Translations under genes and position numbers: made by a program | Assembly: GCF_053078305.1 (NCBI RefSeq) | Contig: NZ_CP166879.1 | Reading direction: 5' to 3' (one strand) | DNA length: 64,000 bases | Part shown: in pieces, positions 21,073-21,408 of the stretch | Layout of the letters: every line of letters begins with the position of its first letter | Numbering within the stretch: the first letter of the stretch is position 1 | Notes under the pieces: generated by a model | Told to the model about the DNA's origin: nothing | The model's input: only the letters and a program-made list of their open reading frames with translations | Databases searched by the model: none

Positions 21073-21408
21073 TTATGGACACTGTTGTTTTAGTCCGTAA
21101 GGGCATATTTGCAGAATGCAATGATTATTAAAGCATTCTTTCAATACGTTATCTGAATTTGCAGGACATTCCTGGCTGTTTTTGATTAAATCCCAGAATC
21201 TTTTATTGAATGGTACAACGTTGTAAATGGTTACAGGTAGCACTTTGTTATTAAGTACGATACCTGTGTGAGTCAACGTAAATATACTTTCAGGAGGTAA
21301 GAAAACATCCGATTGATACCAGATTATTAATTTTATTTTACTCCATATGGCTGAAAAAGATATTCCGCATGATGGCTGGATAACTGTATCAATCACAATC
21401 CACTTCAT
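21073..21408 (-). CDS. Hypothetical protein in AT-rich moron
   Basis: 111 aa; visibly AT-rich relative to flanks; opposite strand to late operon. Confidence 0.4.

Follow-up and report, generated by a model that had tools for sequence, protein, structure and literature searches.

Genomic context and composition of the locus

The window (the whole stretch of DNA analyzed here, 64 kb in length) contains the late region of a lambdoid prophage, which lies beside rspA/rspB on the E. coli chromosome. In this region, genes for DUF968, RusA, a Q-type antiterminator, a DNA methyltransferase, three tRNAs, TerB, and DUF3927, all located on the plus strand, precede an AT-rich cassette, past which follow genes for a SASA/nanS-p-type esterase, DUF1378, DUF826, a class II holin, DUF1327, and a lysozyme. 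The features delimiting this setting are:

17522–18094, plus strand: Q-type antiterminator (DUF1133/Phage_antitermQ; Pfam)
18495–18512, plus strand: intrinsic-terminator-like hairpin, first of three between Q and the iraL-type gene
20023–20040, plus strand: second intrinsic-terminator-like hairpin, past the tRNA cluster; the STnc100 terminator at 21019–21038 (terminator scan) is the third
20837–21049, plus strand: STnc100 prophage sRNA (Rfam RF02076, scoring 140.9 bits where the gathering score is 47)
21039–21661, no strand assigned: AT-rich cassette of 623 bp with 31.5% GC, carrying the iraL-type gene and its promoter and extending from the STnc100 terminator hairpin to the esterase ATG
21662–23629, plus strand: NanS-p-type SASA carbohydrate esterase (DUF1737 + SASA + DUF6645; Pfam), with the start taken from RefSeq by homology

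The cassette holds a single gene. According to the open reading frame (ORF) listing, it occupies positions 21073–21408 of the minus strand, starts with ATG, ends with TAA and encodes 111 amino acids; no plus-strand ORF of at least 40 amino acids overlaps it. The first-pass annotation had described this ORF as markedly lower in GC than its surroundings, as preceded by an AT-rich region of its own and as lying opposite to all its neighbors, and all three descriptions hold. Its GC content amounts to 34.2% (GC3 33%) compared to 50.2% for the whole window, with only 0.86% of all 336-bp segments of the window (sd 5.8%) having a GC content this low, whereas the genes around it range from 46 to 57% (GC3 44–67%). 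The upstream spacer (21409–21646) has a GC content of 28.6%, and no 606-bp stretch of the entire 64 kb is richer in AT than the one starting at 21038. Every neighboring gene from DUF968/RusA/Q (16104–18094) through to the lysozyme gene (25554–26087) is encoded on the plus strand, and the ORF is the sole minus-strand gene from the Q antiterminator to the lysis genes.

An ORF of only 111 amino acids that is AT-rich and finds no match in a Pfam-A hmmscan might be taken for a chance reading frame in AT-rich spacer DNA. The probability of this explanation is vanishingly small, and it is already refuted by the conservation pattern: 4757 of the 5426 complete E. coli genomes contain a homolog, as do other Enterobacterales, and a solved structure is available for a relative. 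In addition, a strong Shine-Dalgarno sequence precedes the ATG. Pairwise dN/dS values of the ORF are 0.26 against iraL of strain CFT073, 0.18 against K-12 iraM, and 0.12 against the homolog of an O157 Stx2c prophage. Because pairwise values range from 0.10 to 0.26 between clades, where dS is saturated, the gene is under purifying selection. The conservation of the ORF, its Shine-Dalgarno sequence and its dN/dS values establish 21073–21408 as a real gene.

Delimitation of the cassette

Two comparators were used to delimit the cassette, namely phage PhiR12_1 and the FHI_NMBU_10 prophage, the latter being integrated at the same rspB site and near-isogenic (96.5% identity over 87% of window positions 1–25000). 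Homology with both continues through DUF3927, STnc100, and the terminator hairpin, then breaks and is back exactly at the esterase start codon at 21662; between the same landmarks both comparators carry a 236-bp filler with 48% GC. The interpretation as a moron, put forward at first pass, is borne out by these comparisons: the gene lies in a discrete 623-bp insert with its own sigma-70 promoter, reverse orientation and deviant GC content, which is present or absent in otherwise homologous prophages. It resembles lambdoid morons such as lambda bor and lom, or stx in the Q-to-S interval, in being an independent unit of deviant composition between late genes and, on the reading developed below, in its expression from the prophage and in acting on the fitness of the host instead of on the growth of the phage. 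It differs from them in that its predicted product is a cytoplasmic proteolysis regulator and no surface protein or toxin, and in that the gene opposes the late operon.

The further description of the gene as recently acquired, by contrast, could not be upheld. K-12 iraM and CFT073 iraL have GC contents of 34.0 and 34.5%, respectively, despite a dS of 1.4–1.6, which is saturated. Because both genes share the low GC content (~34%) at saturated synonymous divergence, this composition is a stable trait of the family and no sign of recency.

At its left border, the cassette adjoins the STnc100 gene, which is convergent with the iraL-type gene and ends 23 nt from its stop codon. The hairpin at 21019–21038 has a T-tract on the plus side only, being followed by AAAGCC on the minus side, and a terminator scan of the minus strand yielded no U-tract terminator for the iraL transcript. 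Since only plus-strand transcription meets a good terminator here, iraL transcripts may extend into STnc100 in antisense direction. At the right border, the esterase gene is the first gene of the late operon past the cassette. Its mechanically called ORF begins at 21647 (MVERTMAFKHY...), but in RefSeq the gene starts with the ATG at 21662 (MAFKHY...), which is also where homology to phages lacking the cassette sets in; the five extra codons of the longer ORF thus lie within the AT-rich cassette and are probably untranslated.

Assignment to the IraM/IraL family

The remote-homology search proposed at first pass was carried out and placed the ORF in the IraM/IraL family. The protein scores 161.1 bits with the NCBIfam profile NF007393 (“anti-adapter protein IraM”), whose cutoff is 121, and its residues 1–109 align to profile positions 1–112 of 114. 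A phmmer search against the PDB recovered the IraM chain (8twd_A, residues 1–78) of 8TWD, a crystal structure of IraM with RssB, with E = 6.6e-33. Protein identity is 90% to CFT073 IraL and 63% to K-12 IraM; at the nucleotide level, identity is 93.5% to CFT073 iraL (336 of 336 nt covered; c1429, positions 1343465–1343800 of CFT073) and 70% to iraM. The translation is identical to WP_021574136.1, which is encoded at the same position in STEC1590 and annotated as “anti-adapter protein IraM” in RefSeq.

Alleles of iraL share at least 95% nucleotide identity (Hryckowian et al., 2014; PMC4045071), and the IraL subtype has accordingly been defined by at least 95% identity to CFT073 iraL over the full coding region together with an upstream region conserved to at least 96% up to position −100 and sigma-70-dependent expression in log phase (Hryckowian et al., 2014). 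With 93.5%, the allele of the window lies short of this identity band and at the same time far above its 70% to iraM, and it is therefore classed here as iraL-type rather than canonical iraL. Taken together, the ORF very likely represents an iraL-type allele within the IraM/IraL family, whose members are RssB anti-adaptors, and resides in a self-contained 623-bp moron of a lambdoid prophage.

The closest known counterpart is CFT073 IraL (c1429, formerly ycgW), which has the same length of 111 amino acids as well as the same core promoter and mapped transcription start sequence. Its surroundings, the so-called “potB island,” likewise have the make-up of a lambdoid late region with Q, tRNAs, DUF3927, a reversed iraL, esterase, holin, and lysozyme. 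The two loci differ by 11 amino acid substitutions in the protein, C110 of the window protein among them, and by the downstream esterase gene, which is intact in the window and a truncated remnant in CFT073. K-12 IraM (b1160, YcgW/ElbA) shares with the window protein the NF007393 match, the PmrD-like N-terminal domain and a tail with four cysteines (Cys4 tail), and its gene has a similar GC content (~34%) and an AT-rich upstream region. Unlike the window protein, IraM comprises 107 amino acids, and its gene adjoins the e14 element outside any late operon and has an unrelated upstream region.

Some of the classification resources gave a less uniform picture. A Pfam-A hmmscan returned nothing for either the window ORF or K-12 IraM, even at E ≤ 10, whereas PF11183 is given for all IraM homologs in the protein database's precomputed Pfam column. 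This mismatch was treated as a library or version discrepancy, and the assignment rests on the NCBIfam, PDB, and fold evidence. In PHROGs, the family corresponds to phrog_4407, which is filed under “unknown function.”

The latter entry, along with the moron-like appearance of the gene, which is AT-rich, has its own promoter and lies on the opposite strand, might still be reconciled with the initial suggestion that the gene is toxin, immunity or anti-phage defense cargo. This suggestion was not confirmed and now appears very improbable, as PADLOC yielded 0 families for the protein even at E ≤ 1, the 623-bp cassette holds one gene with no antitoxin or other second component as partner, and both sequence and fold confidently identify the product as an IraM/IraL anti-adaptor, i.e., a modulator of the host stress response. 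The gene class is already known, annotated, and functionally understood, and does not constitute a new toxin or defense system.

Predicted structure and RssB-contact residues

The N-terminal domain (residues 1–78) is predicted to adopt the same fold as IraM in 8TWD, namely a PmrD-like antiparallel beta-barrel with a hairpin and a helix. An AF2 model from a 52-sequence alignment has a pLDDT of ~90 in this domain, and superposition of an earlier model on 8twd_A gave a target-normalized TM of 0.91 and an rmsd of 1.2 Å over 78 columns. The next-best fold match of the AF2 model in the PDB is PmrD (4HN7, target-normalized TM 0.74), and a resemblance of the IraM fold to PmrD has also been remarked on in the structure paper (PMC10844676).

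In the crystal structure, 15 IraM residues, comprising clusters I–III and Pro66, touch RssB (PMC10844676). The window protein is identical to IraM at 11 of these positions and carries conservative exchanges at the other four (T13S, H63N, I64V, and L75I), while none of its 11 substitutions relative to CFT073 IraL affects a contact position. Throughout the Escherichia clade the RssB-contact residues are kept, whereas many of these positions vary freely among distant family members.

PmrD is a PhoP-induced connector that protects phospho-PmrA. Given that PmrD is the second-best structural match and that the contact residues vary widely in distant members of the family, it might be asked whether the window protein acts as a PmrD-like connector not on RssB but on another response regulator, for instance by protecting phospho-PmrA. 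The likeness of the two proteins extends to the small beta-barrel fold and, as also known from IraM, to the binding of a response-regulator receiver domain. However, PmrD has only ~15% identity to the window protein, comprises 85–88 amino acids, lacks the Cys4 tail, has another target and is no anti-adaptor. Since, moreover, the contact residues are kept within the Escherichia clade and the 90%-identical IraL has been shown to bind RssB and to stabilize sigma-S, a connector function of this kind is very unlikely, and binding to RssB remains the preferred reading.

Promoter, leader, and regulation

The promoter was assigned by reading the sequence upstream of the conserved start and by homology to the published 5′ RACE product. 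For CFT073, 5′ RACE of the iraL mRNA gave the sequence ACATCACCAGCAAGGCATAAACAAGGAAACCA (PMC4045071), which aligns to ACATCACCAGCACAGCATAAATAAGGAGGCTA of the window with identity at 27 of the 33 positions of the untranslated region. From this alignment we infer a transcription start of the window iraL gene at ~21441. The resulting features of the gene are:

21449–21475, minus strand: predicted core sigma-70 promoter, with the −10 element TATACT at 21454–21449 and the −35-like element TTTACA at 21475–21470
21409–21441, minus strand: predicted 5′ untranslated region of 33 nt, with the start at 21441 taken from the CFT073 alignment
21413–21418, minus strand: Shine-Dalgarno sequence AGGAGG, 4 nt before the ATG and stronger than the CFT073 sequence AAGGAA
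21073–21408, minus strand: coding sequence of the iraL-type anti-adaptor (ATG 21408–21406, TAA 21075–21073; 111 amino acids)
21073–21165, minus strand: Cys4 tail (codons 79–111 of the ORF)

Six substitutions distinguish the leader from that of CFT073 and turn AAGGAA into the consensus AGGAGG. The core promoter region from −62 to −1 contains two differences from CFT073. The spacer between the −35-like and the −10 element has an unusual length of 15 nt, and because the consensus promoter scan considered spacers of 16–18 nt only, it did not report the iraL promoter. Over the full region up to −100, identity to CFT073 is 80.6%, a value lowered by a repeat-unit indel of 7 bp and an end gap: the window is without one AATAAAC repeat unit (around −70; ~21505–21515) that is seen in CFT073. 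The same unit is present in STEC1590, although the ORF of that strain is identical.

Regarding known regulators, a search of positions 21041–21700 for the PhoP box ((T/G)GTTTA-N5-(T/G)GTTTA) yielded no match with up to two mismatches; matches with three mismatches exist and are uninformative in AT-rich DNA. Since iraL was found to be raised in a CFT073 fur mutant (published data), the cassette was also searched for a Fur box, and the best match (12 of 19 positions) equals the mode of shuffled controls. An effect of Fur on the gene, if there is any, is probably indirect. In CFT073, iraL is expressed in log phase (PMC4045071) and is upregulated about threefold (1.6 log2) upon a shift from 23 to 37°C (published data). 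That neither a PhoP nor a Fur box rises above chance agrees with the published notion of iraL and iraM being under different regulation.

Mg2+ starvation induces K-12 IraM, which reportedly contacts both domains of RssB, whereas in two-hybrid assays the N-terminal domain alone was bound by IraL (PMC4045071). Hence, it has to be considered whether the window gene behaves like K-12 iraM, i.e., whether it is silent in ordinary growth, is induced under Mg2+ starvation through PhoP/PhoQ, or else by AppY, and encodes a protein contacting both RssB domains. Membership in the same family at 63% identity and the 11 identical contact residues, which include cluster II residues touching the RssB C-terminal domain, are in line with such behavior. 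Nevertheless, it appears unlikely, because the coding sequence is much closer to iraL (93.5%) than to iraM (70%), the upstream region corresponds to the iraL and not to the iraM promoter, and the PhoP box is lacking from 21041–21700 at up to two mismatches.

Distribution of the gene and its arrangement

Genomes of E. coli carry up to 4 copies of IraM/IraL family genes, and distant members of the family are found in Citrobacter, Salmonella, Kosakonia, and Pantoea; long multi-stretch matches (400–3000 amino acids) in the search of representatives were ignored as repeat or beta-strand noise. The allele of the window is rare, with 26 of 20,395 records having at least 95% nucleotide identity to it. 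A further 1415 family records fall between 90 and 95%, the band which includes CFT073 iraL, and 3328 between 60 and 80% (iraM and others).

The arrangement of DUF3927/STnc100, iraL, and esterase is found in 1114 of the 5426 complete E. coli genomes and also in CFT073. The “potB island” locus of CFT073 iraL is therefore a prophage late region, too. Among phage records, 46 contain a homolog, and 32 of these are Stx2, Stx2a, or Stx2c converting phages; in many GenBank phage records the iraM-family gene is unannotated. In Stx2c and Stx2a phages (e.g., phage 2851 and O157:H7 strain 1130), the gene occupies the same slot in the same reverse orientation, directly upstream of a nanS-p-type esterase gene, and its product belongs to the same family and has the Cys4 tail. 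In the Stx2c prophage of strain 1130, for example, the homolog (5001–5324 of locus L007) lies between stx2cB and the esterase gene. In contrast to the window gene, to whose product it has 75% amino acid identity, the iraM-like gene of these phages encodes 107 amino acids, has 41% GC, and is preceded by stx2AB instead of TerB/DUF3927/STnc100. Lambdoid and Stx prophages often have an RpoS-stabilizing anti-adaptor as cargo in the slot that stx occupies as well.

Proposed function in the lysogen

CFT073 IraL binds RssB and stabilizes sigma-S in log phase (PMC4045071), and RssB binding together with RpoS stabilization has been shown for K-12 IraM, too (PMC10844676). By analogy, it is likely that the window protein binds RssB, blocks the delivery of RpoS to ClpXP and raises the stress tolerance of the lysogen; the genes for the partners, i.e., rssB, rpoS, and clpXP, lie outside the window. 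In the lysogen, the iraL-type gene would be transcribed leftward from its own sigma-70 promoter with a start at ~21441. As three plus-strand hairpins are located between Q and the cassette, rightward transcription that is not antiterminated should stop before reaching the gene and would thus be kept off it. The PmrD-like beta-barrel domain (residues 1–78) would then bind the ClpXP adaptor RssB and prevent the handover of RpoS to ClpXP, so that RpoS would build up even in growing cells and general-stress genes would be switched on. Upon induction, Q-modified RNA polymerase would cross the cassette antisense to the iraL-type gene on its way to the esterase and lysis genes, which would probably lower iraL expression. 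Both the shielding during lysogeny and the interference during lytic growth are features that we infer from the architecture of the locus only. An anti-adaptor encoded by a prophage could in this way raise the acid and oxidative tolerance of lysogens, STEC included.

The cysteine-containing C-terminal tail

Only one feature of the gene reaches beyond this locus, namely the Cys4 tail, which is better conserved than anything else in the IraM/IraL family. In the window protein, the motif C-P-x9-C-x4-C-x4-C-P comprises C81/P82, C92, C97, and C102/P103; it was derived in the present analysis and is not a published criterion for the family. The four cysteines are invariant in 20 sequences of the Escherichia clade and present in 43–44 of 44 distant representatives. 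Across 52 sequences reaching down to 20% identity, W72, C81, C97, and C102 are the sole invariant columns, with C92 and P103 being conserved to at least 90%. The allele of the window additionally contains a fifth cysteine, C110.

In the structural work on IraM, residues 79–107 were removed and the tail was called less conserved and flexible, the full-length protein having been reported as unstable and insoluble (PMC10844676). We found no treatment of a zinc or cysteine role of the IraM tail in the searchable literature. In AF2 models, the pLDDT of the tail was below 50 with 20 sequences and ~57–64 with 52 diverse sequences. Tentatively, and with a probability that we put clearly below even, the Cys4 tail may be a metal-binding (Zn or Fe-S) or redox-sensitive module through which the anti-adaptor is controlled in its stability or activity, and which prophage copies would layer on the lysogeny-on, lytic-off switch arising from their antisense placement. 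If true, the tail would provide small anti-adaptors with a direct post-translational sensory input.

Other features of the window

A few further elements were observed in the window. A sequence near the Fur-box consensus, matching GATAATGATAATCATTATC at 17 of 19 positions and by far the best in the 64 kb, is located at 28436–28454, downstream of the lysis genes and upstream of an ORF at 28682–29191 that occupies the place of the terminase small-subunit gene of related prophages. A sok antitoxin RNA (hok/sok type I) lies at 14216–14391 on the plus strand; hokD is annotated in related prophages, and in one related prophage (L008) a RelE/ParE-type toxin-antitoxin pair adjoins the sok-type locus. 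The isrK sRNA and C4 antisense RNA pair occurs in two inverted copies (6689–6877, minus strand, and 35806–35991, plus strand), and a DicF RNA is found at 7125–7176 on the minus strand. The isrK/C4 copies and DicF suggest two modules of the antirepressor/immunity type; the window's right half perhaps holds another phage-like element.

The first prophage tRNA (19758–19833, plus strand) was called tRNA-Met (CAT) by ARAGORN, while its RefSeq homolog is annotated as tRNA-Ile. The latter is the ileZ-like type, which reads its codon after lysidine modification, and the three tRNAs form the ileZ-argN-argO cluster usual in Stx-type phages.
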